A stretch of 64,000 nt of DNA from the NCBI GenBank assembly GCA_963771275.1, contig CAVYSW010000003.1, positions 1,312,001 to 1,376,000 of the forward strand. The letters are read 5' to 3'. Below are positions 37,706 through 55,082 of the stretch, one piece after another (the first letter of the stretch is position 1; each line of letters starts with the position of its first letter). The notes under the pieces were generated by a model. The model worked only from the letters and a program-made list of their open reading frames with translations, made no database searches and was not told the origin of the DNA. The position numbers and the translations under genes are program-made. Source of the DNA: an uncultured Gemmatimonadales bacterium. Its GTDB lineage: Bacteria; Gemmatimonadota; Gemmatimonadetes; Gemmatimonadales; GWC2-71-9.

Positions 37706-38325
37706 TCAGGCTGGCCGGGGGGTCAGTGCCTCGGTCAGCCTGCGAATCCGGACCGTAGCCCGATGATAGCCGCGGCCACCCCACAGGACGATCACGACGC
37801 TGCCCAGCGCCAGCATACCATCGAACAGGCTCCACCACGACAGGCCGAAGTACCGGAACAGCGAGACTCCCAACACCAGGAACGCCAGGCCGGTGCGGAT
37901 CAGCGCGAGGTACGTGCGGCCCCACGCGAGCTCGGTGCGCAGGGTCGACAGACCGGTCCGCCGCTCGGCGAACTGGTTCCGGCCTGCCGCGAGCGTGTTC
38001 CGCTCACGCGCCAGCTCCGTTCGCTGTGTGGACATGCCGGTCCGCTCGCGGGCCATGCCGGTGCGACGCACGGCGAGGTCGGTCCGCTGCCCGGCGAGAG
38101 ACGTTCGCTCGCGACCGAAATCCGTTCGGATGCTGGCCAGCTCGGTGCTCCTGGTCGAGAGCCGCGTCTGTTCGCGGGTCAGCGCGGTCCGCTCCGCCGC
38201 CATGTCGGTCTGCTGCTGGGAGTACGTGTTCGCCGTCGACGCGAACTGGACCAGGCTCGACGTCCCCGCGGTCCGTCGCCGCGCAAGGTCGGCGAGCTCC
38301 TCCTCCAGCGTCTCTTCGGCGCCCA
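37706..38325 (-). CDS. DUF202/YidH-like membrane protein with heptad-repeat coiled coil (5' end missing)
   Basis: About 13 [EQR]RT.[LM]A. heptads, then RTYLALIRTGL and 2 TM helices. The frame is open upstream of ATG 38203 to at least ~38325. Confidence 0.7.
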
Positions 38326-38757
38326 GGGAACACGCTGTTCATCATCGCGGTCGATGTAGCTGTTCGCTGCCTCCTCGTCGCAGTGCAGGCGCTGCATCGT
38401 CATCGTCGTACGCACCTCCCGCGGCGCGTTGAGGCGAATCGCCATGAAGTGGGGAATCGGAGGGAGGAGCAGGTGACCCGAGAAGCCGTGATACACGAGG
38501 TTGTCGCGCCGGGCGTACTCGAGCAGCGCCGCCCGCATCAGGATGAGGTAGGGCCGCCGCAGCTCGCAGAACGCCTCATAGGCCCGGGCGGCGTCGCTGA
38601 GCTGCTCCACGATCCGCTGGGCCAGCGCACCGTGCTGATTCACGAGGGCTACGAGGTCCTCGCGAGACACGCAGCGGGCCCCGGTACGCTCCCGCAGCTG
38701 CTCGACGAGGAGTGTGACGCCGGACATGGTGCCGCGGGAGATCAACACGACGGGCAT
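38326..38757 (-). pseudogene. Cytidylate-kinase-like protein, truncated at about residue 143
   Basis: VVLISRGTMSG, LVYHG, RLNAP. It diverges from its two paralogs right after DDEQRV and lacks the W...Y...P.LYD segment. Confidence 0.7.
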
Positions 38758-38797
38758 GGTGCTCCTCCTCCCCCTTGCTGCCTCCTCTGCCGCGACC

Positions 38798-40141
38798 CTA
38801 TGGCACGGCCATCCAGAAATCCCTGAACACGACGGTCGACAGGAAGTAGCCGAGCGGGACGTTGATGGCCACGCCGATCGTGAACGCCCAGAACGGCGGC
38901 ATGCCGAACTTGGCGAGATCCCGGAATCGGGTCGTGAGGCCGATGCAGAGGAACGTGAAGACGAACGTCCAGGTGCGGAGCGTCTTGATGGGTGTGATGA
39001 GCTGGGCCTGCAACGTCCCCGCGTGATCGGCGGACGCCGTGGCCACCACGATGCTCATGATGACCGAGGCGAGGAAGAACCCGATCACGAACTTGGGAAA
39101 CCGCGTCCAGATGACACCCGGTCCCAGCGCCGCGCGGCCGGTCGTCGCGCCGCGCTCCCACAGGGTGACCGCGACGATCGAGAGCACGAACGCCCAGATC
39201 CCGATCCAGATATCGCGGCCGATCACCTTCATCAGCGTGAAGGTCTGAATCGCGGCGTCGCTGCCGGCGTGCGACGCGATCGTCTGGGCGGCGGCATAGC
39301 CCGCGGCGTCGGCGAACTCGCTCGTGCCGATCCACGCGCCGGCGACCGCTGGATGCAGGCCCAGCGCCCGGCTGGCCAGGGGCAGGAAGAAGATCATCAC
39401 CAGGGCCCACAGCGACACGATCGAGATGCTCACGGCGACGTGCTCCTTGTCCGCCTTGACGGCGCCGCCGACCGCGATCGACGCCGACACCCCGCACACG
39501 GCGCCCCCCGCGCCGAGCACCGCGGCAAACCGCTTGTCCAGCTTGAAGACGCGCGTGGCCACGAAGAACATCACGAGCCAGGTGCACAGCGACACGATCG
39601 TGGCCTGGAGGAACGCGATCCGTCCCGCCGAGACGATCAGCGTCAACGGCAGCGTGGCGCCGAGCAGCACGATCCCCGTCTTGATGTAGTACTCTGTCCG
39701 GAGCGAGCTATCCAACCAGGCCGGCAGTTTCGCGCCGTTGCCGACGAGCAACCCCAGAATGAGCGCCACCAGCGGCGCCTCGAGGCTGTAATAGTGAAAG
39801 AACTGGCTCTGACTGATCACCAGTATCAGCGCCGATGCCAGGTAGATCAGCGTGAAGCCGGCCACGTAGTGCGTGAGCCTGTGCCCCATGATCGCCGTGC
39901 TGATCGCGAAAACGGTGCCGAAGACCAGATAGAGCAGGACGTACCAGGGCCACCCGATGGCGAAGTGGGTCATGACCCGGGAGAACACCGTCCACTCCCT
40001 CGGCGGGCTCACGGCCAGCGGTGCCAGGGTGCCGCCGCCAAGGAAGAAGGCGATCGCGCTCGCGATGATGCCCAATCCCAGCCAGACCGCCCACCAGTCC
40101 TCCGTCTTCCAGAGTGCCGCGAACCGCTCACCAGTGCTCAT
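38798..40141 (-). CDS. YeiH/UPF0324 putative sulfate exporter
   Basis: EDWWAVWLG, YIKTGIVLLGA, VCGVSASIA, WIGTSEFADAAG, KVIGRDIWIG, RFPKFVIGF. Confidence 0.88.
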   Translation of the reverse strand: MSTGERFAALWKTEDWWAVWLGLGIIASAIAFFLGGGTLAPLAVSPPREWTVFSRVMTHFAIGWPWYVLLYLVFGTVFAISTAIMGHRLTHYVAGFTLIYLASALILVISQSQFFHYYSLEAPLVALILGLLVGNGAKLPAWLDSSLRTEYYIKTGIVLLGATLPLTLIVSAGRIAFLQATIVSLCTWLVMFFVATRVFKLDKRFAAVLGAGGAVCGVSASIAVGGAVKADKEHVAVSISIVSLWALVMIFFLPLASRALGLHPAVAGAWIGTSEFADAAGYAAAQTIASHAGSDAAIQTFTLMKVIGRDIWIGIWAFVLSIVAVTLWERGATTGRAALGPGVIWTRFPKFVIGFFLASVIMSIVVATASADHAGTLQAQLITPIKTLRTWTFVFTFLCIGLTTRFRDLAKFGMPPFWAFTIGVAINVPLGYFLSTVVFRDFWMAVP

Positions 40142-40389
40142 GGCGTGTCATCCTTTCCCGAACGCCGGCTCGAGAGCGTCGTCCGTGCAACGGGCGCGGT
40201 GCCTCCCGTACAGAATACCGCATCGGCACCGACTCGGGAGCGCCGAGCCGTGGATTGCCGACAGCGGGGCTCGGACATGGGGAGCGTCGTGTCGCACGAT
40301 CGCTCCACACGATACGATGTCCGCGGGCGCCATGGTCGCGACCGCCGCTGCATCGACGGGTGCGGAACGGCGGTGGTATCTTGTCGGCG

Positions 40390-40749: not shown

Positions 40750-42243
40750 GTGGCCGGGATGGTCTATCTGGTCGGCGCCGGCCCGGGCGATCCGGGGCTG
40801 ATCACGCTCCGTGGCGTCGAGTGCTTGGCGCGGGCCGATGTGGTGCTGTACGACTATCTGGCGAACCCCGCGGTGGTCGAGCATGCGGCCGCATCCGCGG
40901 AGCTGGTCTCGCTGGGCGACCCCGATGCCGGCCGGGCACGCACGCCCGACGAGATCAGCGCGCTCATGGTCGAACACGCCAGCAGGGGCAAGACCGTCGT
41001 GCGTCTCAAGGGGGGCGACCCCTCGGTGTTCGGTCGCGGGGCCGACGAGACGACGGCGCTGCGGGAAGCCGGCGTGCCGTTCGAGATCGTTCCCGGAATC
41101 ACCGCGGGCCTCGCGGTCGCCGCGTACTGCGAGATCCCGATCACCCATCAGGACGATGCGTCGGCGGTGGCGCTGGTGGCGGGCCGGGAGCGGCGCGACA
41201 AGGTCGTCTCGCGGCTCGACTACGGCGCCCTCGCCCGGTTTCCGGGGACGCTCGTCTTCTACATGGGTGTGGCGCGGGTCGCGGAATGGCGCGACGCCCT
41301 GCTCGAGCAGGGCAAGCCGGCCGCCACGCCCGTCGCGATCGTCCGGTGGTGCACCCTGCCGCAGCAGCGCACCTTCCGTTGCACGCTCGGAACGGTGGCC
41401 GACGTGGTCGAGCGAGAGCAGCTCCGTCCACCGGCGCTATTCGTCGTCGGCGCCGTCGTCGCCCGTGCCCCCGAGCATCCCTGGTTCGCGTCCCGACCGC
41501 TGTTCGGGACGCGGGTGCTGGCGAGCGGCTCACCGGGCACCTCCGAGCAGCTCCGGCGCCGGCTGGCGGACCTCGGGGCCGACGTCATCACCCAGCCGGC
41601 GATCCGGATCACGGACCCGCCGGATTGGGCGCCCGTGGACGCGGCACTGGATCGGCTCGAGCGCTACGACTGGGTGGTATTCTCCAGCGGCAACGGTGTC
41701 GACTACCTGCTCCGACGGCTGCTCTCCCGTGGCGGGGACCTCCGCCGCCTGGCGCGCGCGAAACTGGCCGCCATCGGCTCCGGGACGGCGGAGCGGCTGG
41801 CCCGCTATCACCTGCGCGCCGATCTCGTGCCCGACGAGTTCGTCGCGGAGTCGCTCGCCGGGGCGCTCGTCGGCGACGCACGGGGCCGGCGCTTCCTCGT
41901 GGCCCGCGCGAGCCGCGGGAGGACGGTGCTGGGGACGGCCCTCGAGCGGGCGGGCGCCGACGTCGACCAGGTCGTGGTCTATGGCAGCGTGGATGTGGAG
42001 CAGCCCGCCGCCGGCGTGGTGGCGGCGCTCGCATCCGGTGACGTCGACTGGATTACCATCACCAGCTCCGCGACGGCCCGCGCGCTCGTGCGGCTCTACG
42101 GATCGGCGCTGGGGCGGGCACGGTTCGCGAGCATCGGACCGTTGACGTCGGCGACGCTGCGGGAGCTGGGGCATGCGCCCGCCGTCGAGGCGTCCCCCCA
42201 CACGACGGCGGCGCTCGTGGAGGCGATCCTCACGGCTCGTTGA
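40750..42243 (+). CDS. cobA: Uroporphyrinogen-III C-methyltransferase / uroporphyrinogen-III synthase fusion (CobA-HemD)
   Basis: VYLVGAGPGDPGLIT, RLKGGDP..FGRG, VPGIT; HemD part FSSGNGV, AIG..TA, SIGPLT. Confidence 0.92.
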   Translation: MAGMVYLVGAGPGDPGLITLRGVECLARADVVLYDYLANPAVVEHAAASAELVSLGDPDAGRARTPDEISALMVEHASRGKTVVRLKGGDPSVFGRGADETTALREAGVPFEIVPGITAGLAVAAYCEIPITHQDDASAVALVAGRERRDKVVSRLDYGALARFPGTLVFYMGVARVAEWRDALLEQGKPAATPVAIVRWCTLPQQRTFRCTLGTVADVVEREQLRPPALFVVGAVVARAPEHPWFASRPLFGTRVLASGSPGTSEQLRRRLADLGADVITQPAIRITDPPDWAPVDAALDRLERYDWVVFSSGNGVDYLLRRLLSRGGDLRRLARAKLAAIGSGTAERLARYHLRADLVPDEFVAESLAGALVGDARGRRFLVARASRGRTVLGTALERAGADVDQVVVYGSVDVEQPAAGVVAALASGDVDWITITSSATARALVRLYGSALGRARFASIGPLTSATLRELGHAPAVEASPHTTAALVEAILTAR

Positions 42244-42252
42244 TTCGCGGGC

Positions 42253-42924
42253 TCAGTCCTCGCCGGGGGTTCCGGCCAGGGCGCGCCGCGTCAGGTCCCG
42301 CACACGCGTGCGGCGGAGCGAGCCGCCCTCGTAGAGATCGACCGGTCCCTCGTCGGCGAGGAGGTCCGGCCGGGTGGCGAGCGGCGCCGGCTGTCCCACC
42401 TGCATCAGCGCCCAGACCGCCATGCCGCGGACCTGAGGATCGCGGTCGTCGAGGGCCGCCGTGATCGCCCCGAGGAGCGGCGCGACGTGATCGCGGGCGA
42501 GGGCGCCGAGTCGTCCCAGCGCCCACAAGGCGCCCGGGCGGAAATGCTCGAGGTCTTCCGGTTCCAGGTTCACAAGGAGCGAGGCGACGATTGGGACGTA
42601 GTCGGCGCAGAGCGTCGGGCACCACCGGACGATTTCCGCCATCGCTTCGGGCGAGCGCCAGCAGATGCCGCCCGACTCCTCGCTCAGCAGCCAGTACAGC
42701 CGGCGCAGCTGCTCGCGGACGTGGTCGGGATGACGCTCGGCGATGCGGGCGGCGCTGCGACCCAAGGCCTCGACGGCGCGCCAACCGATCTCGGGGTCCG
42801 GGTCGAACGTCAGGGATACCAAAGTGCCCAGGACCCGCTTCGTGCGGCCGCCGATCTCCGCGACCCGCTCCAGGCGTCTCTGTTTCAGCAGGTCCCGCAG
42901 GGCGTCCTTGGTCGGTTGGGTCAC
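42253..42924 (-). CDS. HEAT-repeat protein (DVU0298-like)
   Basis: WRAVEALG, RRLYWLLSEESGGICW, ALWALGRL, D.DPQVRG.A.WAL. Confidence 0.75.
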   Translation of the reverse strand: MTQPTKDALRDLLKQRRLERVAEIGGRTKRVLGTLVSLTFDPDPEIGWRAVEALGRSAARIAERHPDHVREQLRRLYWLLSEESGGICWRSPEAMAEIVRWCPTLCADYVPIVASLLVNLEPEDLEHFRPGALWALGRLGALARDHVAPLLGAITAALDDRDPQVRGMAVWALMQVGQPAPLATRPDLLADEGPVDLYEGGSLRRTRVRDLTRRALAGTPGED

Positions 42925-42952
42925 GAGCGCGGTGGCTTATCGATCAGCATGA

Positions 42953-43028
42953 ACCGCAGAGCACGCGGAGCGCGCAGAGACCAGCGACCGCGGTCACCCA
43001 CTCTCGCGTCCTCTGCGCTCTCCGCGGT
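42953..43028. repeat. REP-like imperfect palindrome built from 9-nt CGCAGAGNN units
   Basis: ACCGCAGAGCACGCGGAGCGCGCAGAGA ... CTCTCGCGTCCTCTGCGCTCTCCGCGGT; intergenic. Confidence 0.6.
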
Positions 43029-43139: not shown

Positions 43140-44690
43140 TTACCGCAGCAGGACGGGCATCCCCATGGCCGGCCAGATCCAGCGCACGAACAGCGCGAGC
43201 ACGGCGATCAGGATGAGGCTCACGGGAAGGCCGGCCCGGAAGAACTCCCGGGCGGTGAACTGATTGCTCGTGTAGGCGATGGCGTTGGGCGCGGCGCCCA
43301 CCAGCAGCAGGAACGGCATCCCCGCGGTGACGAGGCAGGCGAAGAAGATCACTTCGGGTGTCACGCCGACGTACCCGGCGATGACCAGAGCGACCGGCAA
43401 GGTGATGGCGATCGCCGCGACGTTCATGATCAGGTTCGTCATCCCGAGCACGAACACGGCCATGCCCATCACGAACATCATCCATGGGGCTTGGTGGAAC
43501 AGCCCGAGCCAGGTCACCGCGAGCCAGCTGGCCGCGCCCGTCTGCCACAGGCAGAAGCCCAGGCTCATCGCGCCGCCGAAGAGCAGGACGATGTTCCACG
43601 AGGCCTCCTCGAGGTCCTCCACGCGCACGATCCGGAGGACGAAGAACAGAATGCCGGCCAGGAGGATGACGGCACTCTTGTCGAGTGGCTCGAAGGCGGG
43701 GATCAGCGTGCGTACGCTCAGGATCGCGATCGTCGACAGGACGATGGTCAAGGCAAGCGTCTCGTTCCGGCTCATGGGACCCAAGCCGGCATGGAGGCGC
43801 TTGACGCGCTCGCGCAGTCCCGGAATCGTCTTCCGTTCTGGCGGATAGTACAGCATGAAAAACGCCCAGACCACCAGCGTCATGATGGCCCCGACCGGGA
43901 ACATGTAGTACGTCAGCTCGAAGAACGACACCGTGCGGCCCGTCATGTCGCGGAAGAACCCGATGGCCACGGCGGCCCGCGCGGAGCCGAGCAGCGTGAT
44001 GATGCTGCCCGCGCCGGCGACGAAGGCCATCCCGATGAACAGGCCCTTGCCGAACCGGGTCGGCGCGCTGTCCTCGGTGTACAGCGCGTAGATGGCGAGG
44101 AAGAGCGGGAACACCGTCGCGGCCACGGCCGTGTGCGCCATGATGAGCGTCAGGGCCGCCGTCATGACGAAGCAGCCGAGGTAGATCATGCTGGTCCGCT
44201 CGCCCACCAGCGACAGCATCTTGTAGGCCATCCGCCGGGTGAGCCCGGTCTTGGTGAATACCATGCCGAACAACAACGAACCCACGATGAACCACACGGA
44301 CGGGTCCATGAAGTCCGTGAACGCCACGCGGACGGGGCGAATGAGGAACAGGGCCTGGAGGACACCGATGGTGATGCTGGTGACGCCGATCGGGATCACC
44401 TCGAACACCCACCACGTCGCGGCGAGCAGGAAGACGGCGAGCGCCCCCTTGCCCTCTCGGGTGAGTGGAAACGCCTTCCCCTGGGGATCGATCGCCGGGT
44501 GCAGCGTGGGCGCGTAGTATATCCCGAGGAAGAGTGCCAATCCAAGCAAAATGAACGCCGTTCGCTGCCAGTCGAACCCGGCCGCGTCCCGGGCGCTCTT
44601 GGTGTGCGCGACCTCCACCGTCGCGACGCCAACCGCACGAGGCGCGGGATTGGGTCCAGCCGCAGTGGTCTCTATCGTTTCATTGGTCAT
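43140..44690 (-). CDS. DASS/SLC13 anion (sulfate/dicarboxylate) transporter
   Basis: WWVFEVIPIGVT, KTGLTRRMA, AGAGSIITLLGSAR, WNIVLLFGGA, TNLIMN, GAAPNAIAY. Confidence 0.9.
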   Translation of the reverse strand: MTNETIETTAAGPNPAPRAVGVATVEVAHTKSARDAAGFDWQRTAFILLGLALFLGIYYAPTLHPAIDPQGKAFPLTREGKGALAVFLLAATWWVFEVIPIGVTSITIGVLQALFLIRPVRVAFTDFMDPSVWFIVGSLLFGMVFTKTGLTRRMAYKMLSLVGERTSMIYLGCFVMTAALTLIMAHTAVAATVFPLFLAIYALYTEDSAPTRFGKGLFIGMAFVAGAGSIITLLGSARAAVAIGFFRDMTGRTVSFFELTYYMFPVGAIMTLVVWAFFMLYYPPERKTIPGLRERVKRLHAGLGPMSRNETLALTIVLSTIAILSVRTLIPAFEPLDKSAVILLAGILFFVLRIVRVEDLEEASWNIVLLFGGAMSLGFCLWQTGAASWLAVTWLGLFHQAPWMMFVMGMAVFVLGMTNLIMNVAAIAITLPVALVIAGYVGVTPEVIFFACLVTAGMPFLLLVGAAPNAIAYTSNQFTAREFFRAGLPVSLILIAVLALFVRWIWPAMGMPVLLR

Positions 44691-44722
44691 TGAGGAAAGA
44701 CCTCGGGGTCGGCGTGCTCCGC

Positions 44723-45259
44723 CTATTGCAGCAGCCGGATGAGCTCGTGAAACACGTCGACCGAGCGCACCACGCCCACCAGTTGACCATTCCGCACCAC
44801 GGGTATCAGGGACAGATCGAGCGAGACCATCTCGCTCACCGCCTTCATGACGTGGTCGTCGGCGTCGAGGATCGCCTCGATCGGACGCATCACGTCGCTC
44901 ACGGGTCGGCCCGCGCGCTCGCGAATGCCCTTCATCATCCGATCGTACGAAAGCTCCGACAGGTTCGGGTCGACACCCACGTCGAACAGTCTCCGGGGGT
45001 GCTCGAGCGGCTGCCTGACCAGGAACGCGGGCTCCAGGCCCAGCATGAGGTCGCGGCGGCGGACGTAGCCCACCGCGACGTGAATCGCGTCGAACACCAG
45101 CAGCGCGCGGGGCAGGGACTGGCGTCCCCCCGTTTCGAGCTGCGCGTGCTCCATGACGGCGATCGCCTCGCGGAGCGTGGCGTTGTCGCGCACGGAGGGG
45201 TACTGCCCTACCGGGATCATGATCTCCCTGACCCGCGTCACGAGGGCCACGGCCGTCAC
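44723..45259 (-). CDS. CBS-pair domain protein
   Basis: VREIMIP...ATLREAI; VSDVMRP; IPVVRNGQLVGVV. Confidence 0.85.
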   Translation of the reverse strand: MTAVALVTRVREIMIPVGQYPSVRDNATLREAIAVMEHAQLETGGRQSLPRALLVFDAIHVAVGYVRRRDLMLGLEPAFLVRQPLEHPRRLFDVGVDPNLSELSYDRMMKGIRERAGRPVSDVMRPIEAILDADDHVMKAVSEMVSLDLSLIPVVRNGQLVGVVRSVDVFHELIRLLQ

Positions 45260-45696
45260 CAGCCCTTCTTGTGCAGGATGTCCGACATCTTCTGCGCGAC
45301 GCGCTGGTCCCTGAGCGACCAGTGCTTCCGGGCCGCGTCGTCGATCTTCTGCACCAGCGTGTCGATGGAGGCGGGCTTCTCGAGCAGGTCGAGGGCCCCG
45401 AGCTTCATGGCCGCCACGGCCTGTGCCAGCGTGGCCCGGCCGGTCAGAAGGATCACCTGGAGATCGGGGTTGATGGCCAGCAACCCCTGCAGCGTCTCGA
45501 CGCCGTCCATGCCCGGCATCGCCATGTCCAGCAGGATGGCATCGAAGGTTCTCGCGCGGGCCTTCACCAGCGCTTCCTCGCCGCGCGCGGCGGTGGCGAC
45601 GGTGAGCCCGCGCGCCTCGAGTCGCTCCGCCAGCACGGCCACGAACTCGGGCTCGTCATCGACGAGCAGAACGGTGCACTCGGTGGATGCGGTCAT
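45256..45696 (-). CDS. Single-domain response regulator
   Basis: VLLVDDE, LDMAMPGMDG, LTG, EKP. Confidence 0.9.
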   Translation of the reverse strand: MTASTECTVLLVDDEPEFVAVLAERLEARGLTVATAARGEEALVKARARTFDAILLDMAMPGMDGVETLQGLLAINPDLQVILLTGRATLAQAVAAMKLGALDLLEKPASIDTLVQKIDDAARKHWSLRDQRVAQKMSDILHKKGW

Positions 45697-45721
45697 CGGA
45701 TCCGCTCCCGGACCTGCCGGG

Positions 45722-46120: not shown

Positions 46121-46128
46121 GGCGGTCT

Positions 46129-47883
46129 CTACCGTGGCGCCTGATTGATCGGAAGGGTCACGGTGAAGCAGGTTCCCTCGCCGACCTTGCTCTTGACGTC
46201 GATGTGGCCGCCCAGCTTCTGCACGATGCCGTAGGTGATGGAGAGCCCCAGGCCCGTTCCCGCCCCCTTCTTGGTCGTGAAGAACGGATCGAAGATGCGG
46301 GCCAGGTGCGACTCGGGGATCCCCACCCCGTCGTCCGCGACGCTCACGGCCACCGCGTCCGGTCCGGCCGGCTGAACGCCGATCTCGATGCGTCCGCCGT
46401 CACTGACGGCGGCGAAGGCGTTGTTGAGGATGTTGAGGAACACCTGTTGCAGCTGACCCCGGTCGCTGACGATCGTCGGCGGATCCGCGGGGTAGTCGAA
46501 CTCGATCGTCACGTTGCGGAAGCTCGCTTCCTTCTCCAGGAAGCTCAGAACCTCCCTGAGCAACAGGTCGAGATTGATGCTCTCGCTCTGCACGTCCATG
46601 TGCTTGGCGAACCCCAGCAGGCGGTGCGTGATGCCGCCGCAGCGGTCGGCCGCCTTGGTGATCGCTCCCACCAGCGTGATGAGCTTCTGACGGGGCGGGA
46701 GCTCGCCCGATTGCTCCAGGAGGTCGCGCAGCAGCCCGGCGTTCTGCGTGATGATGGCAAGGGGGTTGTTGATCTCATGGGCCACCCCAGCGCCCAGCCG
46801 GCCGATAGCCGCGAGCTTGTTGGTGTACTCCACCTTGTGGTAGATCGCGGCCCGCTTGCGATCCGCGTCGCGGACGCGGTTCACCATGTACACCGTGCCG
46901 GTGATGACCACGGCGAGAATGACGATGCTGCCGATCGCCGGGAACAGCAGCACGTCGCGCCGGAGGGTGCGCCACCCGGCGTGCAGCTCCACCCGCGGCG
47001 TGAGCAGCACCAATGTGAAGGGCGAGCGGTCGATGCCGGCGTACGCGACGATCAGCGGCTCGCCGCGCTCGTCCGTGAGATCGACGAGCTCCGGCTGCGG
47101 GCTGCGGGGCAGTGGCGGGAGGGGAGCCCGGTCGAGGACGTCCCCGTAGTGCTGCGACGGTGTCTGGAGCGTACCGTCCCGGTTGATGATGAACACATCG
47201 CTGAAGGGTTCCACGCCCACCGAGTGGCACCGCCGGCAGACCGTTCCCTGCTCCGGGCGGCGCGACGTACGGGACCGGACGAGAAAGTGGAACACGTCGG
47301 TGTCGATCGTCGCGCGCAGCACGAACTGGTGGCCGTCATCCCGCACCTGCTGGATCGCGATCACGATGTGCGGAAGGTTCCGATAGCCGAGGAATACGTC
47401 GCTGACATAGGAGCCCTGCGCGCGGACCTCACGGAACCACGCGTGGTCCGCGTAGTTCCGCCCCCTAAGGTCGTACGGACCGGCGTAGGCGATCTGCAGG
47501 CCGTCCTCGTCGATCACCCCCAGATCGACGATGCCGCCGAACGTGAACTTCACATTGGCGAGCAGCGAGTCGAGCTGCCTCGACTGCAGCAGTTTGTCGA
47601 ACGGCGTTTCCCGGGCGATCATGGCGAGCGCCGACAGGCGCTCGGAGAGGAACGACTCGAGCGATTGCTTGCCGGCGGTGGCGAACCGCACCATGGGCCG
47701 GGTCAGCTCGGTGTGGAACGCGTCTTCGTACTGATGGTAGTTGATGCTCGCCATGATGAGGAGGGGCAGGACGGCGACGGCGGACACGGAGAGCACCGCG
47801 CCGAGCAGCATGCGGCGGTACCGCCCCCCGGACAGCAGGTGCCGCTCCTCCGGACGGAAGTCCTGCGTGGCGTCGTCCGTCAT
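46129..47883 (-). CDS. Membrane sensor histidine kinase (Cache-type, NtrB-like) with extracytoplasmic CxxCH
   Basis: Two TM helices flank a Cache-like region (WF...YVSDVFLGYR); AHEINNPL, NNAFAA, DDGVGI, PFFTTK, GTGLGL; CRRCH at 47224-47238. Confidence 0.9.
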   Translation of the reverse strand: MTDDATQDFRPEERHLLSGGRYRRMLLGAVLSVSAVAVLPLLIMASINYHQYEDAFHTELTRPMVRFATAGKQSLESFLSERLSALAMIARETPFDKLLQSRQLDSLLANVKFTFGGIVDLGVIDEDGLQIAYAGPYDLRGRNYADHAWFREVRAQGSYVSDVFLGYRNLPHIVIAIQQVRDDGHQFVLRATIDTDVFHFLVRSRTSRRPEQGTVCRRCHSVGVEPFSDVFIINRDGTLQTPSQHYGDVLDRAPLPPLPRSPQPELVDLTDERGEPLIVAYAGIDRSPFTLVLLTPRVELHAGWRTLRRDVLLFPAIGSIVILAVVITGTVYMVNRVRDADRKRAAIYHKVEYTNKLAAIGRLGAGVAHEINNPLAIITQNAGLLRDLLEQSGELPPRQKLITLVGAITKAADRCGGITHRLLGFAKHMDVQSESINLDLLLREVLSFLEKEASFRNVTIEFDYPADPPTIVSDRGQLQQVFLNILNNAFAAVSDGGRIEIGVQPAGPDAVAVSVADDGVGIPESHLARIFDPFFTTKKGAGTGLGLSITYGIVQKLGGHIDVKSKVGEGTCFTVTLPINQAPR

Positions 47884-47933
47884 GCTCCCGTCCGCGGTGC
47901 GCGCATCGAAGGTGGTGGCTGCACGGCCGGGCG

Positions 47934-48845
47934 TTACTCGCCGTCGCGGCGGATGCACCCCGCCCGACGTACCGTGTCCACGAGGTGGGTGAGATCGACG
48001 GGCTTGCGCAGGTAGTCGAACGCGCCCAGGCGGCGGGCCTCCTCTTCGTCTTCGTCGGAGCCGTGTCCCGTCATGATGATGACCTGGACCAGGGGGTGCA
48101 TCGCCTTCACCCGCCGCAGCACTTCCATCCCGCCGATCCCCGGCATCTTGAGATCGAGCACGATCACGTCGGGAATCTCGGTCCGGAGCATGTCGAGCGC
48201 CTGCTGCCCGCTCAACGCCACCTCGCCGCCGAGATCGCGCATCTCCATCCGCTCGGCCATGGTCCGCACGAAATCCTCCTCGTCGTCGACGAACAGGACC
48301 TTGAGGGCCTCGGGGTGGGAGGGGAAGCGCTCGGGCGCCCGCTCGGGCTCCGCGGCAGCCCGCCGCGGCAGGGGCTCCTCCAACATCCCCTTGGCCATCT
48401 CGGGCACGTCCGCCTCGGCCATGGCGGCAGCACCCATGCTGCGGGAGAATTCGTCGCGGGAGTCCTTGAGGACGTTGAGGCCCTTTCGCCAGGCCGCCCG
48501 GATCGTGTGCAGCAGGTGGTGCGTGTCGGCCGGCTTCTGGAGGTATTCGAAAGCGCCCAGCCGACGCGCCTGAGTCTCCTCCGTGGCGGAGCCGTGCCCG
48601 GTGAGGATCACGACCTGGACGTTGGGGTGCTCCTGCTTGACCCGCTCCAGCACCGCCATGCCATCGATGCCCGGCATGCGCAGGTCGAGCACCATCACGT
48701 CGGGCGCCTCGTCCTCGACCATGCGCAGGGCTTGCTCGCCGCTCAACGCGACGCGGCTATCGACGTCGCGCATCTCCATCCGCGCGGCCATCGTTCGCAC
48801 GTAGTCTTCCTCGTCGTCGACGAGTAGCACCTTGATCTTGCTCAT
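47934..48845 (-). CDS. Tandem REC-REC response regulator
   Basis: Two near-duplicate REC domains (V[LF]VDDEED.VRTMA.RMEMRD...DL.MPGI.GM...TGHGS...KP). Confidence 0.9.
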   Translation of the reverse strand: MSKIKVLLVDDEEDYVRTMAARMEMRDVDSRVALSGEQALRMVEDEAPDVMVLDLRMPGIDGMAVLERVKQEHPNVQVVILTGHGSATEETQARRLGAFEYLQKPADTHHLLHTIRAAWRKGLNVLKDSRDEFSRSMGAAAMAEADVPEMAKGMLEEPLPRRAAAEPERAPERFPSHPEALKVLFVDDEEDFVRTMAERMEMRDLGGEVALSGQQALDMLRTEIPDVIVLDLKMPGIGGMEVLRRVKAMHPLVQVIIMTGHGSDEDEEEARRLGAFDYLRKPVDLTHLVDTVRRAGCIRRDGE

Positions 48846-48866: not shown

Positions 48867-49529
48867 TCAGGCCGCGGTCGCCGCCGGGAAGAGAAGCCGG
48901 AAGCGACATCCCCCACCGGCCACGTCGAGCGAGCCACCGAGACCGTCCACGAGCTCCGCGAGCCGGCTCCAGCCGGCGGTGTCCGTCGGGGCGGATCCCG
49001 TGTCACCGCCCGTCAGCTCCGCGGCACACTCGACGGAGGCGCGTCCGTCGTGCCGCGCGGCGCACAGGGTCACCGTCCCCGGGGCGGAAAGCCGCTCCAT
49101 GCAGCACTCCACCGCTGCGAAAAGCGCCATCTGCAGTCGCAGGGCGTTGCTTCGAACCGCGAGATCCGGATCGCCCGGTCGCACCTCCAACGCGTGCCCC
49201 CGCTGCCGCGCGAAGCGCTGGCTCAGGAACGCCGCCTGGCGCACCTCCTGGTCCAGCTGGAGCACCGCCGCTGCATGCTCCAGGGCGTGGGCGAAGCGGT
49301 TCAGGCTCGAGACGATGTCGGCGCCGCGCGCGACCTGGGTGCCGATCCGGTCGACGCAGCGCAGCAGCCTGCTCGGGTCGGGGGCGCCGCGCCGCTCCAC
49401 GGCGCGCACGAGGTCCTCGATCAGTCCCGCGGACTCCTTCACGATCGCCAGCACGTTGCGCATCTCGTGTGTGGCGCTGGCCGTGATGGCGGCAATGAAC
49501 GCCGCTTCGCGATCGTCTGACGTGCTCAT
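48867..49529 (-). CDS. Sensorless histidine-kinase-like protein with degenerate ATPase domain
   Basis: THEMRNVLAIVKE H-box, RFAH; N and G boxes not recognisable. Confidence 0.7.
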   Translation of the reverse strand: MSTSDDREAAFIAAITASATHEMRNVLAIVKESAGLIEDLVRAVERRGAPDPSRLLRCVDRIGTQVARGADIVSSLNRFAHALEHAAAVLQLDQEVRQAAFLSQRFARQRGHALEVRPGDPDLAVRSNALRLQMALFAAVECCMERLSAPGTVTLCAARHDGRASVECAAELTGGDTGSAPTDTAGWSRLAELVDGLGGSLDVAGGGCRFRLLFPAATAA

Positions 49530-49565: not shown

Positions 49566-51569
49566 TTACGTGAGTGCACCGGCAGGCGCCAGCCGGCGCT
49601 CGATCCACTCCTCCGCGTGCTCCACGGCCGCGGTGAACGCGTCGTGGGCGTAGAGCGTCGCCGCGTACGCCGCCACGGCCCGCTCCAGGTCGTCCGCCGT
49701 CCAGATGGTGACGCCGTCGGGGGGCGCGGTGCCCCGCAACGAGCCGAACGAGTTGAAGTCGACGATCGTGAGCGGCCGCGCGGCAAAATCGCGCAGCCCG
49801 CGCAGCAGCGCGGGATCCAGGACGGGGTCATTCTGGTCGATGCCGAAGAACACGAAATCGGCATCGCCGATCGCCTGGACGACGCCCGGCTCGGCGTAGG
49901 CATGGACGCGCAGCCGGCGGCCGTGCCCGATCGCGGCACGCAGCAGCTTCATCTGGCCGTGGTGGTCCCGATACACCAGCGTCAGCTGACGGTGCGGGAC
50001 ATGGAACCGCTCCGCCAACGCAGCCAAGATCGATCGTGAGGTGGTCGAGCCTCCGATGACGACGTGGTGACGGTCGTCGAAGACGGCACCATGGTCGCGC
50101 AGGTGCGACAGCGCCGCGAGGCAATACCCGGTGCTGAACCGTCCCCACGGGGTCTCGGCGCGGACCTCCGCCGCGAGCGCGGCCGCCTGCCCGACCAGCT
50201 CTGCCGCGCGGGCGCCGGCGACGCCGCTGCAATTGGCGATCCGCAGCGCCGTCTGTAGCTGGGCCACGACGTCGGTGTCCCCGGGGAGCGCGCTGTTCAA
50301 CCCGCACGCCGTGCGCATCAGATGATGCCGCGCAGCGTCACCGAAGAGTACGTTGACCGCGAGGCCCTGCGGCTCGCAGCCGTACAGTTGGTGGCGGATC
50401 CGCGCCGCGACGCACTCGCGGGCCGCGACGTCGTCGACCTCGGTGGCCCACCCATAGAATTCGATGCGCTGGCAGGTGTCCCATACCAGGGCTTCGGCAA
50501 CGAGACCCTGCTCCCGAGCCCACTGCAGCAGGGCGTGCAGTGCCTTGCGCGACTTTCGCACGCCGGCGAACGCCGGCGCGGTGCTGTGGCGCACCTGCGG
50601 GCCATGCGTGGCGCGAATGCCGTTCGCGAGCGAGGCGCCGATCATGATCAGCGAACGCTCGCCGGCGCCGATCTCCTCGACGCCGGGCAGCGGAGCCGGA
50701 GGCGGGGGCGAGGCCGCTGCGGTCAACGGACGCGATCCGCGGAGCACGAGATCCCGGAGGACGGGGACGACCTGGTCCTGGTCGTCGAGCCGCGGGCAGA
50801 TCACAAGCTGGACCGCGTGGTCTTCGCCGAGATCGCGGCCCGTGATGGCGGGGGGCGCAAGCGGTCCGGGGCCATCGCCGAACCCGGTAAGCGGGCACAG
50901 CAGCACGCTGCGGACGCCCGCGCGCCGGAGCTCGGCGAGCCGCGCGGCCGCGCCGGCGCCGAGCGCATCGGGTGCGGCGGGCTCGCGCCAGGCCAGCGAT
51001 ACCCGCTCGGCCGGCCAGCCGAGTCGCCCGGAGACGAGCGCGACGGTCCGTTGCAGCTGCCGCACCCAGGGATCGCCGTCGCACCGGGGCGACTCGAAAC
51101 CGCCGTCTGCCCAGAAGAGCAGATGCGCGGTCTGGGAGCACATCCCGTGCGACGCCGCGTGCTTCGCGATCACGGCCGCCTGCGCGTTCACGTATCCCGC
51201 GTCGTCGTGCCAGCTGGCGCGGATGCCGACGTTGATCGGCTCGTCGCGGTGTGCAAGCAGCCGATACAGCTCGCGCGCGACCGCGCCGTTGGTGAGGTCG
51301 CTGAAGTGCGGGGACAGCGGCACGACCACCAGCTCCGTCGCGCCGTCCGCGATCACGGCCTCCAGGGCGTCCGCGATCGACGGCTGGCCGTGGAGCGATG
51401 CCCCGCGCACCTGCCAGCCGGCGGGCAGCACGGCCGCCAGCGCCCGGACGTGGTGCGCGAGCGGCCCGACGGACGTTGCTCCCGCGCCGACCCGCACCAG
51501 CAGGGCGGCGCGGGCCGGGCCGGCGGGCTCGGGCGATGGGTGGGTGAGGAAGGCAGGCATGGTGCTCAT
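49566..51569 (-). CDS. Ferrochelatase-like / glutamyl-tRNA reductase-like fusion
   Basis: N-half GQPSIADAL...LVVVPLSPHFS...SWHDDAGYVNA...DPW..Q (HemH-like); C-half TCQRIEFY, HLMRTACGLNSALPGDTDVVAQL, VRAET (HemA-like). Confidence 0.75.
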   Translation of the reverse strand: MSTMPAFLTHPSPEPAGPARAALLVRVGAGATSVGPLAHHVRALAAVLPAGWQVRGASLHGQPSIADALEAVIADGATELVVVPLSPHFSDLTNGAVARELYRLLAHRDEPINVGIRASWHDDAGYVNAQAAVIAKHAASHGMCSQTAHLLFWADGGFESPRCDGDPWVRQLQRTVALVSGRLGWPAERVSLAWREPAAPDALGAGAAARLAELRRAGVRSVLLCPLTGFGDGPGPLAPPAITGRDLGEDHAVQLVICPRLDDQDQVVPVLRDLVLRGSRPLTAAASPPPPAPLPGVEEIGAGERSLIMIGASLANGIRATHGPQVRHSTAPAFAGVRKSRKALHALLQWAREQGLVAEALVWDTCQRIEFYGWATEVDDVAARECVAARIRHQLYGCEPQGLAVNVLFGDAARHHLMRTACGLNSALPGDTDVVAQLQTALRIANCSGVAGARAAELVGQAAALAAEVRAETPWGRFSTGYCLAALSHLRDHGAVFDDRHHVVIGGSTTSRSILAALAERFHVPHRQLTLVYRDHHGQMKLLRAAIGHGRRLRVHAYAEPGVVQAIGDADFVFFGIDQNDPVLDPALLRGLRDFAARPLTIVDFNSFGSLRGTAPPDGVTIWTADDLERAVAAYAATLYAHDAFTAAVEHAEEWIERRLAPAGALT

Positions 51570-52048
51570 TTCCTGTTTGCGTCGCGAGCGAGAAAGTCCG
51601 CGATCTGGTCTCGTGTTTGTCGGGCGCGCGCCGGATCGTTGCCGTCGGTGAACACGGCCACGGTCAGGTCGTCGCGTTGCAGCAGCGCCCCGAAGATCAC
51701 CTGCGAGCGTTCCGCCGAGGATGCATCGCAGGCGAGCATGCCTCGTTCCGCCGCGCTGCGAACGACGGCGGCGTTCAGGGCCTCGTCTCCCGTCGCGGCC
51801 ACGGCGAGCGATGCGCCCTCCAGGTGCTCGACGCGAAACGGCTCCGGCAGCCAGCGCACGCGCCCGGTGTCGACGAGTGCCGCGAGCTCCTCCGAAATGC
51901 GCGGCGCGACGACCGAAACGTGCGCCCCGGCCCGGACCAGCGTCTCGACCTTGCGCGTTCCAACGGGACCGCCCCCCACGACCAAGCAACGGGCGCTCCG
52001 GAGGCGCAGCCCGATCGGGAGAAACCGCAGCGGACCCGCGGTAGGCAT
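51566..52048 (-). CDS. sirC: Precorrin-2 dehydrogenase (SirC / CysG N-terminal)
   Basis: LPIGLRL...LVVGGGPVGTRK...VVAP...AATGDEALN...AVFTDG. Confidence 0.85.
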   Translation of the reverse strand: MPTAGPLRFLPIGLRLRSARCLVVGGGPVGTRKVETLVRAGAHVSVVAPRISEELAALVDTGRVRWLPEPFRVEHLEGASLAVAATGDEALNAAVVRSAAERGMLACDASSAERSQVIFGALLQRDDLTVAVFTDGNDPARARQTRDQIADFLARDANRK

Positions 52049-52061
52049 GGATCGTCCGGCT

Positions 52062-52508
52062 TCAGTGCCCGACATTCAACACGCCGCTCGCCGCGAGCGC
52101 GAGAATCAGGCTCTCCACGACGGCGAACGCGGCGTAGACGAAGTCCCGTTTCCGGAGCAGCGTGGGGACGATCCCCACGTAGCACGCGACCGTGACACCG
52201 GACAGCAGCACGATCCCCGAGAAATTCAGATAGTCACCCTTGTTCAGCACGGCGATCCAGGACCAGCCGGTCACGAGGTGCGCGCGGTGCAAGTGCTCGG
52301 CGTTGATCGTGCTCAGGTAGTCGTGGACGTTCATGCTCCAGTAGGTCGGCAGATCCTCCAGCGGCACGGCCGGCTCGACGACGCCGAAGACGTACAGCGC
52401 GAACGTCACGACGAGGATGGTCAATCCGATGTAGACGCCGGTTTCGAGAATCCGGGCGTAGAGCAGCTGCTCATCCTTGACCACCGGGGCCTTCACGTCT
52501 TCGGACAT
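52062..52508 (-). CDS. DUF1634-like membrane protein (TauE partner)
   Basis: EQLLYARILE, YWS, GWSW, GDYLNF.GI; 3 TM; directly after tauE. Confidence 0.7.
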   Translation of the reverse strand: MSEDVKAPVVKDEQLLYARILETGVYIGLTILVVTFALYVFGVVEPAVPLEDLPTYWSMNVHDYLSTINAEHLHRAHLVTGWSWIAVLNKGDYLNFSGIVLLSGVTVACYVGIVPTLLRKRDFVYAAFAVVESLILALAASGVLNVGH

Positions 52509-52534
52509 CGTGACGTCCCCCCCTGATCGCTCCA

Positions 52535-53518
52535 CTAGATGATGAAGGGCAGACCCAGTCCCTGGGTCGCGGCCTTCGCCCCCGAGAACAACAGCAACGC
52601 GATCACGACCCAGCGAATGAACGCCGGCTTGGCGACCCGCAGAATGCGGACGCCGATGATCGATCCCAGCATGATGCCGATCAGCGACGGAACCACCATC
52701 ATGGGGATCACGCATCCCTTGTTGAGGTAGATCCACGCCGCGGACGTGTCCGTGATGGACAGGAGGAACTTGCTGGTCGCCACGCTGATCTTGAGGGGCG
52801 CGCCGAGCACCAGGTTCAGGACCGGGACGTTTGCCCAGCCCGCGCCGAGGCCGAACATGCCCGCCATCACGCCGATGACGATGAACAGCAGCAGGCCGGT
52901 TGTCGTGCGGTGGATCTTCCAGTTGATGGTCTGCCCCATGCTGGCTTCGCGGTACACGCCGTAGATCTGCAGGGCCGACGACAGCCGGTCGGCGACCGGA
53001 ACCTGTGGGAACTCGGACTTCCTCGCGGCCATCATGATGGCGACGATCGCGAGGATCGTGACGCCCAGCGCCGTCTGCACGACGTCGGTGGGCAGCGCAA
53101 GGCCGATCATGGCGCCGATGATGGCGCAGGTCGAGGCGATCAGCGCCAGCGGCATGGCGAGACGGAGACTCGCCAGGTTCATCCGCAGGAAGCCCGGTCC
53201 CGCGGCGAGCGCGCCGCTCAGCGCCACCAGCAGACCGCACCCGCGGACGAAATCGAGGTGAAACGGGAGAAAGCCGCTGACGATCGGCACGAACAGCACC
53301 CCGCCGCCCACGCCGCCGAGGGCGGCCAGGATCCCCATGAAGAACGTGAGCACGAACAAGACGAGCGGCCAGATCCACCACGACGTCAGGCCGTCCGGCG
53401 CGAGCGTCGTGGCCGGATCGCTCGCGAGCAGCAGCGTGGGGCGCAGCAGCAGCAGGGCCGCCAGGATCGCCGCGGCCGACGCGCAGCCAAGGAGCACGTC
53501 GCGCACCCGAATGCCCAC
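52535..53518 (-). CDS. TauE/SafE family sulfite exporter
   Basis: GGVGGGVLFVP, GMFGLGAGWANVP, ATSKF, PSLIG...G. Confidence 0.88.
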   Translation of the reverse strand: MGIRVRDVLLGCASAAAILAALLLLRPTLLLASDPATTLAPDGLTSWWIWPLVLFVLTFFMGILAALGGVGGGVLFVPIVSGFLPFHLDFVRGCGLLVALSGALAAGPGFLRMNLASLRLAMPLALIASTCAIIGAMIGLALPTDVVQTALGVTILAIVAIMMAARKSEFPQVPVADRLSSALQIYGVYREASMGQTINWKIHRTTTGLLLFIVIGVMAGMFGLGAGWANVPVLNLVLGAPLKISVATSKFLLSITDTSAAWIYLNKGCVIPMMVVPSLIGIMLGSIIGVRILRVAKPAFIRWVVIALLLFSGAKAATQGLGLPFII

Positions 53519-53553
53519 CCGCCATGCCTCCTTGCCCCGCGCGCGCTCGGCGC

Positions 53554-54372
53554 TCAGGGATACGGGTCAAACCACTGGAGCTTCAGCCGCACCGCCGTCA
53601 CACCGGGGACCGAGCGGGCGATCTCGCTGATCCGGTCGCCCGTCTTGCCGGTCGCTCGCAGCGGGGCCGCGCCCGAGACCTCGACCACTCCGTCCTGCGC
53701 TTCGACCTCGAGGCCGTACCCGCGGGTCTCCGGCGCGCTCACGAGCGCGAGCTTGACCCGACAGGCCAGGCGGAAGTCCGTGAGCTGCGCCGCGACGCGG
53801 TCCGTGATCGCGAAGTCCGGCTGCGTGAGCGTAGTCGTGAGCAGTTCGCAGGCGACCGGGATGGACATCATCTCGAGGTTCAGGACCATGTCGTAGAGCG
53901 CCGGGTCCTCGATGTCCTCGCCGTACATCATGCGGACCCACCGCGCCCGCTGTGCGTCGACCCGCCGGACGAACTGCTCGGCCGCGAACCGGTCCATCCC
54001 CTCCGCCTCGACCAGCACGCGCAGCCGCAGCGCGAGCGGGGCGATCAGCCGCACGCGCAACACAGCCGGCAGGCCCTGCAGCAGCAGCTGCCCGGCGAGG
54101 CCGTGGTACACCAGGTTGCCGCCGCCGAGATGCTCGGCCAACGCCGCCTGGACGGCCACGACGTACACGCGCCGGATTGCCGCATGGCGATCCCACAGGC
54201 GCGGCGCCTGCTCCATCTTCTGGGCGAGGCTTTCTTCGGAGACGCCGAGCTCCGCCGCCGCCTGCTGAGCCACCTCCCGCCCCAGCAGCGGATACTGCAG
54301 GCGGTCCGCCAGACATTCGGCCAGCGCCTTCCCGCCGCTCCGGGTGCCCCGACAGATCGTGATGATCGCCAC
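53554..54372 (-). CDS. Cytidylate-kinase-like protein with C-terminal BON domain
   Basis: IITICRGTRSGGK, LVYHG, RVRLIAP, W...YG.D..DP.LYD; BON-like VEAQDGVVEVSG...ARSVPGV. Confidence 0.8.
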   Translation of the reverse strand: MAIITICRGTRSGGKALAECLADRLQYPLLGREVAQQAAAELGVSEESLAQKMEQAPRLWDRHAAIRRVYVVAVQAALAEHLGGGNLVYHGLAGQLLLQGLPAVLRVRLIAPLALRLRVLVEAEGMDRFAAEQFVRRVDAQRARWVRMMYGEDIEDPALYDMVLNLEMMSIPVACELLTTTLTQPDFAITDRVAAQLTDFRLACRVKLALVSAPETRGYGLEVEAQDGVVEVSGAAPLRATGKTGDRISEIARSVPGVTAVRLKLQWFDPYP

Positions 54373-54428
54373 GCGCTAGTCCCCTCGGGGGTCCACCCGG
54401 GTCGGTCGCCGCGGTCGCGCGCGCCGTC

Positions 54429-55082
54429 TCATGGCTGTCCGGCCGTCGCCGCGCGGAGGCGCTCGCGACACTCGGCGGCGAACGTCTGGTGCGCGGTGCG
54501 TACCGCCTCGGTGATTTCGTACTGCGGCTGCCGCGCCAGCGCCGCGATGATCGCGCAGGCGGTGCCAAGCGCGATCTCGCGCAGGTTGATCGTCAGATCG
54601 TAGAGCGACGGAGACGTGACGTCCGCATTGTACATCAGCCTGACCCAGCGCCTGCGGTCCTGGTCGACCCGGCGGATGAAGCGCATGGCCGCCTGCTGAC
54701 TCGTCGCGTGATGCGTGGCGACCAGCGACCGGACCCGCATCTCGAGCGGCGCGATCAAGCGCACGCGCAAAACGCCGGGCAGGCCGCGCAGCAGGAACTG
54801 GCCCGCCAGACCATGGTAGACCAGGTCGCCGCGCGCCACGTGCTCCGCCAACGCCGCCTGGACCCCGACCAGATACCGCTGGCGCTCGGGCGTGCGCAGC
54901 GCCCAGCGGGCGGGCGGCGTCTCCAGCTTGCTGCGCACCGCCTCCTCAGAGGCGCCCAGGGCCCGTGCCGCATCCTGCAGGATCTCGCGGCCGACGCACG
55001 GATACCCGAGGGTCTCGGCGAGGCACTCCGCCACCGCCCGGCCGCCGCTCAGCGTCCCCCGCGAGATGGTGATGATCGGCAC
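54429..55082 (-). CDS. Cytidylate-kinase-like protein
   Basis: GTG 55082 with GGAG RBS; IITISRGTLSGG, LVYHG, RVRLIAP, WVRLMY...PSLYDL. Confidence 0.8.
   Translation of the reverse strand: MPIITISRGTLSGGRAVAECLAETLGYPCVGREILQDAARALGASEEAVRSKLETPPARWALRTPERQRYLVGVQAALAEHVARGDLVYHGLAGQFLLRGLPGVLRVRLIAPLEMRVRSLVATHHATSQQAAMRFIRRVDQDRRRWVRLMYNADVTSPSLYDLTINLREIALGTACAIIAALARQPQYEITEAVRTAHQTFAAECRERLRAATAGQP

Follow-up and report, generated by a model that had tools for sequence, protein, structure and literature searches.

The control of sulfate entry and sulfite exit in sulfate reducers is an open question, with the transporters mostly unassigned according to PMC5840216, and an intracellular level of control through adenosine 5'-phosphosulfate (APS) or adenosine triphosphate (ATP) has so far only been speculated upon in PMC11887813. 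The same source describes clusters in which a DASS transporter is encoded together with Cache kinases, regulators and proteins of the CBS type, and which were proposed to regulate sulfate uptake, possibly via APS or ATP; its main text contains no mention of cytidylate-kinase-like proteins or TauE. An uncharacterised membrane-transport operon with a response regulator is recorded in the sulfate reducer D. vulgaris (DVU0146-0150; PMC4641369 and PMC4265775), and four unnamed syntenic genes are marked in acidobacterial dsr clusters (PMC6018796). One of these four may belong to the protein subfamily described here, a branch of the uncharacterised family PF13189 (Cytidylate_kin2). Its members were studied in a window of 64,000 nucleotides (C3:1312001-1376000) from the 3.86-Mb, 96.7% complete genome of an uncultured Gemmatimonadales bacterium (GCA_963771275.1). 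The window contains the end of a sulfur-respiration supercluster together with three genes of the subfamily, K1, K2 and K3, and in dissimilatory sulfur metabolism the subfamily forms a real, conserved accessory family, apparently without a name and probably regulatory in role.

No paper naming the subfamily, or linking cytidylate kinase-like proteins with dsr or TauE, was found in the non-subscription literature. Word searches of the main texts of PMC10504309, PMC10591310, PMC6338057 and PMC5840216 returned no mention of it, the word 'cytidylate' does not occur in two supplements of PMC6018796, and the one BON-domain paper that surfaced for PF13189 has no occurrence of the family in its main text.

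Fold and conserved residues of the K subfamily

The gene dsrN (55093-56490, minus strand; cobyrinate a,c-diamide synthase-like, TIGR00379 430 bits) is the last core dsr gene of the window and is followed after 10 nucleotides by K1 (54429-55082, minus strand), which has a GTG start and encodes 217 residues with the P-loop ISRGTLSGG and no BON domain. K2 (53554-54372, minus strand; 272 residues) carries a C-terminal BON domain and precedes a TauE/TSUP transporter gene (52535-53518, minus strand; PF01925, 123.6 bits). Both kinase-like genes are intact, and the arrangement given in a preliminary description of the window, two cytidylate-kinase-like genes on the dsrN strand, one with BON, and then tauE, was borne out. 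K1, K2 and the truncated K3 (38179-38757, minus strand) scored 127, 118 and 57 bits, respectively, against PF13189, for which the gathering cut-off is 28 bits. Five PF13189 genes are present in the genome, namely these three, a fourth subfamily member (K4) and one canonical gene of the SRQYGSGG type in a non-sulfur context. The variant P-loop I[SC]RGT.SG, which had been noted as common to K1-K3, occurs exactly three times in the six-frame translation of the genome, once in each of them; the motif LVYHG occurs six times.

The K1 model (predicted local distance difference test, pLDDT, 90.5) has the nucleoside monophosphate (NMP) kinase fold. The top matches in the K1 fold search were 3hdt (Z 19.5, root mean square deviation (rmsd) 1.9, 163 residues aligned) and 3fdi (Z 17.6), both uncharacterised PF13189 proteins, and these were the top two rows in both fold searches. 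They were followed by cytidine monophosphate (CMP) kinases (Cmk) at Z 16.0 and 15.7 (Cmk range Z 13-16; rmsd 3.2-3.5), and then by shikimate and other kinases. Likeness to APS kinase was limited to the general fold (Z 9.9-10.6), with no Pfam match to PF01583. The folds of the regulatory protein of pyruvate phosphate dikinase (PPDK; DUF299) and of sulfotransferases were not among the 50 fold-search rows listed, and no direct comparison with them was made.

In a profile alignment (probability 1.5%, 29 columns), SRGTLSGGR of K1 was paired with DGPAGSGKS of the Cmk of this genome, with Arg8 opposite the first glycine of Walker A and Gly14 opposite its lysine; the register is the same for 3hdt and 3fdi. 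Conservation was scored over 261 subfamily rows, comprising cluster representatives, the genes of the 78 surveyed loci described below and K1-K4. The Walker A lysine column holds Gly in 91%, Ala in 4%, Val in 3% and Lys in 0% of these rows (Gly in K1 and K2, Val in K3), and the following column is variable. Other positions are strongly kept: R8 (93%), R32 (93%), R/K67 (91%), H90 (83%), R/K108 (94%), R116 (99%), D140 (95%), R143 (91%) and W146 (96%), as well as S7, G9, Y70, Y89-H90-G91, G94, H95 (86%; Gln in K1 and K2) and Y161-D162. Six conserved basic residues on a fold of this kind point to a possible binding site for a ligand that carries phosphate or sulfate, and by analogy with NMP kinases the conserved residues may together line a single pocket.

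The preliminary description had set the three proteins apart from true Cmk, and this distinction is upheld: none of K1-K3 is a CMP kinase. They gave no match to the bacterial Cmk profiles PF02224 and TIGR00017, which in this genome are passed only by the gene at C10:720258-720896, and the archaeal-type profile TIGR02173 returned 37.5 and 30.3 bits, below its cut-off of 102.1.

Co-occurrence, gene neighbourhoods and fusions

The subfamily comprises 801 clusters (50% identity) at E<=1e-30, with up to 8-10 paralogues per genome. Among 301 genomes of the phylum of the source organism, scores were bimodal and 13 genomes (its own included) had a match of at least 148 bits. Six of the 301 carry dsrA. 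The tandem K1/K2 pair was found in five of these six, belonging to five families, versus none of the 295 genomes without dsrA, and all five genomes with the pair have the order K1-K2-tauE-DUF1634-like, preceded by dsrN in four. Eight carriers lack dsrA, one of which (G018) has dsrB.

Four further samples were then searched at E<=1e-40 with a profile (A2) built only from this phylum; the genome at the centre of each sample had been picked because it carries the gene. In Acidobacteriota (281 genomes), the subfamily was found in 30 of 33 dsrA-positive versus 0 of 248 dsrA-negative genomes (29/32 versus 0/248 without the centre genome), and this link spans more than one lineage, since the titles of the loci cover Acidobacteriaceae, Terriglobia, Bryobacterales, Vicinamibacterales and Thermoanaerobaculia. 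The corresponding counts were 26/55 versus 3/56 in Desulfobacterota, where one of the three dsrA-negative carriers has an aprA fragment, 1/4 (the centre genome only) versus 0/97 in the class Dehalococcoidia, and a weak 6/51 versus 1/50 in Nitrospirota (p 0.11, not significant). The enrichment in dsr genomes anticipated by the preliminary description was thus strong in the source phylum, in Acidobacteriota and in Desulfobacterota. Carriage of the gene comes close to implying Dsr metabolism, which itself can do without the gene.

Gene neighbours were surveyed in the best 78 of at least 586 loci, which represent about a dozen phyla and in some cases share a genome. TauE lies near the subfamily gene in 52 of these 78, across many phyla, versus 0 of 19 canonical-type control loci. 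The other neighbours were PEP-dikinase-like proteins (PEP, phosphoenolpyruvate; 43), receivers (36), TIGR02186-type genes (34), kinases (28), sat/apr/qmo/dsr genes (25, including aprA in 15 and sat in 8), DUF202 (12), MFS (6), DASS (3), YeiH (3) and SulP (1). Of the 78 loci, 64 hold an oxyanion-type transporter or a gene of dissimilatory sulfur metabolism and 14 hold neither, compared with 0 of 19 canonical-type loci of the source phylum that hold one. Direct adjacency was recorded for TauE (23), PEP-dikinase-like genes (12), aprB (6), sat (5) and YeiH (2), and the recurring orders were sat-K-tauE, K-aprBA-qmo, tauE-TIGR02186-receiver-K-dikinase and K-DUF202. The expected enrichment beside sulfur transporters, checked with profiles, held for TauE and other oxyanion-type transporters. 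A model with one kinase-like protein per transporter was rejected: K1 and K2 go with TauE, K3 goes with DUF202, and DASS and YeiH were each near the subfamily in only 3 of the 78 best loci.

Several features of these neighbourhoods were recorded separately. The PEP-dikinase-like proteins are about 850 residues long, contain a PPDK_N and a phospho-histidine domain, and accompany TauE and TIGR02186-type genes in the 43 loci (L054-L131). The D. vulgaris operon DVU0146-0150 presumably holds TauE and TIGR02186 genes. A CxxCxxCC-domain gene lies between aprA and qmoA (L003:11445-12311) and recurs in 17 of the 78 best loci, and an OsmC-like gene lies between sat and dsrC (L003:4926-5318).

Domain fusions, which include BON as the usual C-terminal part, were examined in 29 longer proteins, where the subfamily domain is joined to a receiver in 25, to CBS in two and to a K4-type tail in two. 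Among about 50 regulators of this genome, the double-receiver protein at 47934-48845 was the best match for 25 of 27 fusion receivers, and the best match in the genome for all nine fusion CBS parts was the CBS protein at 44723-45259, with only 1-2 matches each. In G018, a K-receiver fusion lies between SulP and homologues of the window's sensor kinase, kinase-like fragment and receivers. The receiver fusions often lack the P-loop motif altogether. Because the subfamily is fused elsewhere to homologues of the window receiver and CBS protein, it can be tied to the DASS cassette, and these fusions are the best sequence evidence that the kinase-fold domain may belong to the signalling system of that cassette. 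The kinase/transporter module put forward in the preliminary description accordingly survives in a changed form, through receiver and CBS fusions, and not as paired kinases and transporters.

The locus and the broken third paralogue

Upstream of the window, the supercluster consists of a Rex-like regulator, aprBA, qmoABC, sat, a DsrC-like gene and dsrMK; inside it lie dsrKJOP, dsrA, dsrB, an 85-residue open reading frame (ORF) labelled dsrD-like by its position, a DsrL-like flavoprotein gene and dsrN. The combination of dsrD and dsrL beside dsrAB is a sign of reductive metabolism according to PMC10591310. Intergenic gaps do not exceed 56 nucleotides from dsrL to the DASS gene, all on the minus strand, which is an operon-like spacing. 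After tauE comes a small membrane protein with three hydrophobic segments (52062-52508), previously called DUF1634. It scored 15.2 bits against DUF1634 (PF07843; cut-off 27.5), and it is regarded as divergent and DUF1634-like because six of seven aligned homologues match that family at E<=1 (best 1.9e-7). It is followed by a SirC/DsrV-like precorrin-2 dehydrogenase (51566-52075; TIGR01470, 109.6 bits) and a ferrochelatase-like/glutamyl-tRNA-reductase-like (HemA-like) fusion (49566-51569; PF00762 and PF05201, both far below the NCBIfam cut-offs), a fusion within the dsr operon that has homologues in the genomes G047 and G125.

The cassette then continues on the same strand with a short protein that is read here as resembling a sensor-kinase transmitter (48867-49529; no family match, kept in G047, G164 and G018), the double-receiver response regulator (47934-48845, profile matches), a sensor histidine kinase with HisKA, HATPase_c and a Cache-like domain (46129-47958; dCache_1 36.8 bits, E 4e-9, below the cut-off of 45), for which the true start is probably further in, two single-domain receivers (45256-46120; PF00072), the CBS-pair protein (44723-45259; PF00571) and the DASS/SLC13 transporter (43140-44690; TIGR00785, 216.9 bits, cut-off 198.6). 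Past DASS lie a DVU0298-family HEAT-repeat gene (42253-42924, minus strand; NF045662, 175 bits, cut-off 75), a uroporphyrinogen methyltransferase/HemD fusion with a CbiX-like chelatase before it (40750-42243, plus strand; profile matches), a YeiH-family putative sulfate exporter (38798-40141, minus strand) and K3. The order CBS, DASS, HEAT, YeiH and third kinase-like gene had been given correctly; the siroheme/haem genes and the sensor-kinase/receiver cassette between tauE and CBS had been left out, as had the two opposite-strand tetrapyrrole genes between HEAT and YeiH, which interrupt the module. The YeiH assignment stands on PF03601 (153.9 bits) and fails on TIGR00698 (77.5 versus a cut-off of 232.6).

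A scan for promoters and terminators returned no promoter-like and seven terminator-like sites, near chance, and the Rfam search gave no match. A gene for a MerR-type regulator with a cysteine-rich tail, followed by a second dsrMK-like pair (34570-37640, plus strand), converges on the module, and a Ser/Thr kinase cluster with TPR or receiver domains, outside the present finding, lies at 15078-28942.

Phylogenetic placement was made with a FastTree tree of 137 rows, in which many deep forks are open and only well-supported shallow clades were used. K1 and K2 (50% identity) fall in one clade of 10 rows (support 98) and appear from this placement to be a duplication within this lineage. K3 (32-35% identity to K1 and K2) lies in a separate clade of 11 rows from four phyla (support 100), ten of which directly precede a DUF202-repeat gene. 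The position of the third paralogue after YeiH is as previously described, yet the gene is not intact, and what is conserved beside it is the DUF202-repeat gene rather than YeiH. Its homology ends close to 38321; past about residue 145, K3 continues in another frame through what is left of a DUF202 membrane protein with a coil of 7-residue Arg-Thr repeats (37706-38287, minus strand, profile match; 165 residues from the ATG at 38203). In G125, the pair is intact, with a 272-residue K3 that carries BON followed by a 240-residue DUF202 protein, and YeiH does not precede K3.

The junction at 38317-38319 was located by contig comparison and marks a 620-nucleotide deletion in which the latter half of K3 was lost along with the beginning of the DUF202 gene. 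Four sequencing runs were compared: at 38318, a contig of a near-identical strain (run X2) shows 621 letters where the window has one; the short form is spanned by records from X1 (38124-38357), which may be the source sample, and from X4 (38195-38421), and no spanning piece was listed for X3. Since the long form is present in X2 and the short form is bridged in X1 and X4, the deletion is a natural allele; K3 is a pseudogene and both alleles exist in nature. An assembly error was rejected, as the short form is spanned by contigs from two studies and the long form comes from a third.

DUF202 proteins with the long Arg-Thr repeat coil vary in length (236-382 residues in complete copies), and genes for them lie beside subfamily genes in 12 of the 78 best loci (including L041, L059, L094, L102 and L118). 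The DUF202 coil protein could possibly be an anion conduit. A diatom table (PMC7283521) assigns DUF202 to the Vtc subunits of the polyphosphate complex, and by analogy this is a lead that the partner of K3 might handle anions.

K4 (501 residues) directly precedes a second tauE, followed by a receiver and a HAMP kinase (L001:8218-12985; C3, about 793-798 kb), at a distance of 570 kb from the sulfur-respiration island. In its model (pLDDT 84.4), the kinase fold is accompanied by two more alpha/beta domains and by helices at the C-terminus; two of these helices are hydrophobic enough to span a membrane. The protein carries BON-like, possibly USP-like and membrane parts, and in G164 the same block of K4, tauE, receiver and kinase comes after the DASS cassette. 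A USP assignment for the middle domain is retained only as a lead (Atlas score 0.87), the match not having been seen in the fold search. A stretch of C10 (765465-768588) holds a receiver gene, a second CBS gene and, beside the CBS gene, a longer DASS-like ORF with additional matches to receiver domains.

Candidate role and comparison with known systems

In sulfate activation and APS reduction, ATP is converted to APS, pyrophosphate and adenosine monophosphate (AMP), and sulfite is made. We infer that K1 and K2 lack phosphoryl transfer, bind a ligand of one class and contact a transporter or receiver directly. They would thus be non-catalytic, arginine-lined binding modules for an adenylate or a sulfur oxyanion that regulate TauE-type and other transporters, a reading of the sequences that is given about an even chance. 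The ligand would be an anionic product of sulfate respiration, either an adenylate (AMP, ADP, ATP or APS) or a sulfur oxyanion; the signal would pass to the co-encoded TauE and to the sensor-kinase/receiver/CBS/DASS cassette, and ligand binding would adjust the activity of the transporter or the output of the relay. K3 would act likewise for its DUF202 coil partner, the pair being broken in this strain. The wider proposal, put forward more tentatively as falling short of an even chance, is that the subfamily as a whole is an accessory component of dissimilatory sulfur metabolism, a kinase-derived sensor of APS/AMP or sulfite that gates TauE, SulP and SLC13 and feeds a two-component relay.

A number of observations weigh against this regulatory reading. 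The Walker A lysine is missing from canonical PF13189 proteins too, which makes its loss a trait of the whole family. The ranking of the 78 loci followed their similarity to a query linked to TauE, and the same loci supplied the neighbour profiles, so that the survey leans towards its result. For this reason, 18 further loci were taken, the best match of each of 18 genomes picked from the Acidobacteriota, Desulfobacterota and Nitrospirota searches. Nine lie beside an oxyanion-type transporter (TauE 5, SulP 2, SLC13 2), three beside EmrAB-type efflux genes and six beside neither kind, and dsr, apr or sat genes were in range of none. The sulfur/transporter link is real and is looser outside Acidobacteriota and the source phylum. 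In the latter, the seven dsrA-negative carriers other than G018 hold divergent members in non-sulfur contexts (four, placed in the tree, form one clade), and no aprA was found in the five that were tested. The Fisher tests overstate the association, related genomes not being independent. At E<=1e-40, the subfamily is absent from 29/55 Desulfobacterota, 45/51 Nitrospirota and 3/4 Dehalococcoidia genomes with dsrA, and sulfate reduction does not require it. Among the 29 longer proteins, none joins it to a TauE, DASS or SulP domain, which is a weak test, and the transporter substrates are family labels only. The function of TSUP proteins in sulfate reducers is not predictable according to PMC5840216.

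Two other explanations are unlikely and were ranked alike. K proteins could be unconventional enzymes in which arginines replace the Walker A lysine, transferring phosphate or sulfate among adenylates, pyrophosphate and APS, or modifying the PEP-dikinase-like protein as the PPDK regulatory protein modifies PPDK. Such activity would suit an NMP-kinase fold with many invariant Arg, His and Asp residues, and the frequency of PEP-dikinase-like neighbours, together with the adjacency of sat and aprB; against it, the lysine and the following Ser/Thr position are both unconserved, the P-loop motif is often lost in receiver fusions, and genomes hold many paralogues. The present genome has four subfamily genes and no dikinase-cassette gene (best score 88.9), and an obligate link to that enzyme was rejected here. 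It is similarly doubtful that the proteins sense the general energy state on behalf of membrane transport and two-component cassettes in anaerobes, with neither the ligand nor the targets specific to sulfur and with the link to sulfur reflecting where such cassettes are concentrated. EmrAB/MFS efflux genes (6 of the 78 best and 4 of the 18 further loci), CLC channels (2 of 78), DUF202 coils (12 of 78) and non-transport genes among the neighbours fit this explanation, as do members in dsrA-negative genomes. It is countered by the absence of the gene from all 248 dsrA-negative Acidobacteriota, by the finding of dsrB or of an aprA fragment in two apparent exceptions elsewhere, and by direct adjacency to sat, aprB and dsrN that repeats across phyla.

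That the genes are passengers on a horizontally moved sulfur-respiration island, without a functional tie to the transporters, is improbable: their patchiness among sulfate reducers and the loss of K3 would agree with it, but gene order is kept across five families, partners are clade-specific, the domain is fused to cassette proteins, and the second K-tauE locus lies far from the island. Ordinary cytidylate kinases, as the Pfam family name, the source label 'cytidylate kinase' and the structural likeness to Cmk would have it, are hardly credible given the missed Cmk profiles, the absent lysine and the true cmk on C10.

If the wider proposal is true, the subfamily would be the intracellular point, so far missing, at which freshwater and soil sulfate reducers control oxyanion flux, and would offer a new marker gene for them; a sensor role would also give the uncharacterised PF13189 family a first function. 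As a candidate, K1 is small, soluble and well folded in its model, and it comes with a limited set of possible ligands and of conserved residues. The gene is near-universal in dsr-bearing Acidobacteriota and in the sulfate reducers of the source phylum, and it is useful as a marker whatever the mechanism because all 30 carriers in the Acidobacteriota sample have dsrA, with no false positive.

Among known systems, the K subfamily resembles canonical PF13189 proteins (3hdt, 3fdi) in fold, in the lysine-less SR..GSGG-type loop and in overall alignment. It differs from them in SRG[TS]xSGG, YHGxxGH, a C-terminal linker and usually BON, and is separated by its bimodal scores (at least 148 bits versus mostly below 105), its own clade and a sulfur context that is absent from canonical loci. 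With Cmk (PF02224/TIGR00017) and TIGR02173 it has the NMP-kinase core in common (Z up to 16.0), and it differs in the replacement of the Walker A lysine by glycine, in scores below the family cut-offs and in the presence of a true cmk elsewhere in the genome. The Desulfobacteraceae DASS cluster described in PMC11887813 is like window positions 43140-48845 in combining DASS, a sensor kinase, receivers and CBS, with a Cache-like domain of the kinase that scores below the cut-off here, but the cassette here lies inside the dsr operon of another phylum. To our knowledge, no transporter is regulated by an NMP-kinase-fold module. CBS, RCK/KtrA, STAS and USP modules have the role that is proposed here, being small, soluble, free or fused, and placed beside a secondary transporter, while the fold of the K subfamily is different.

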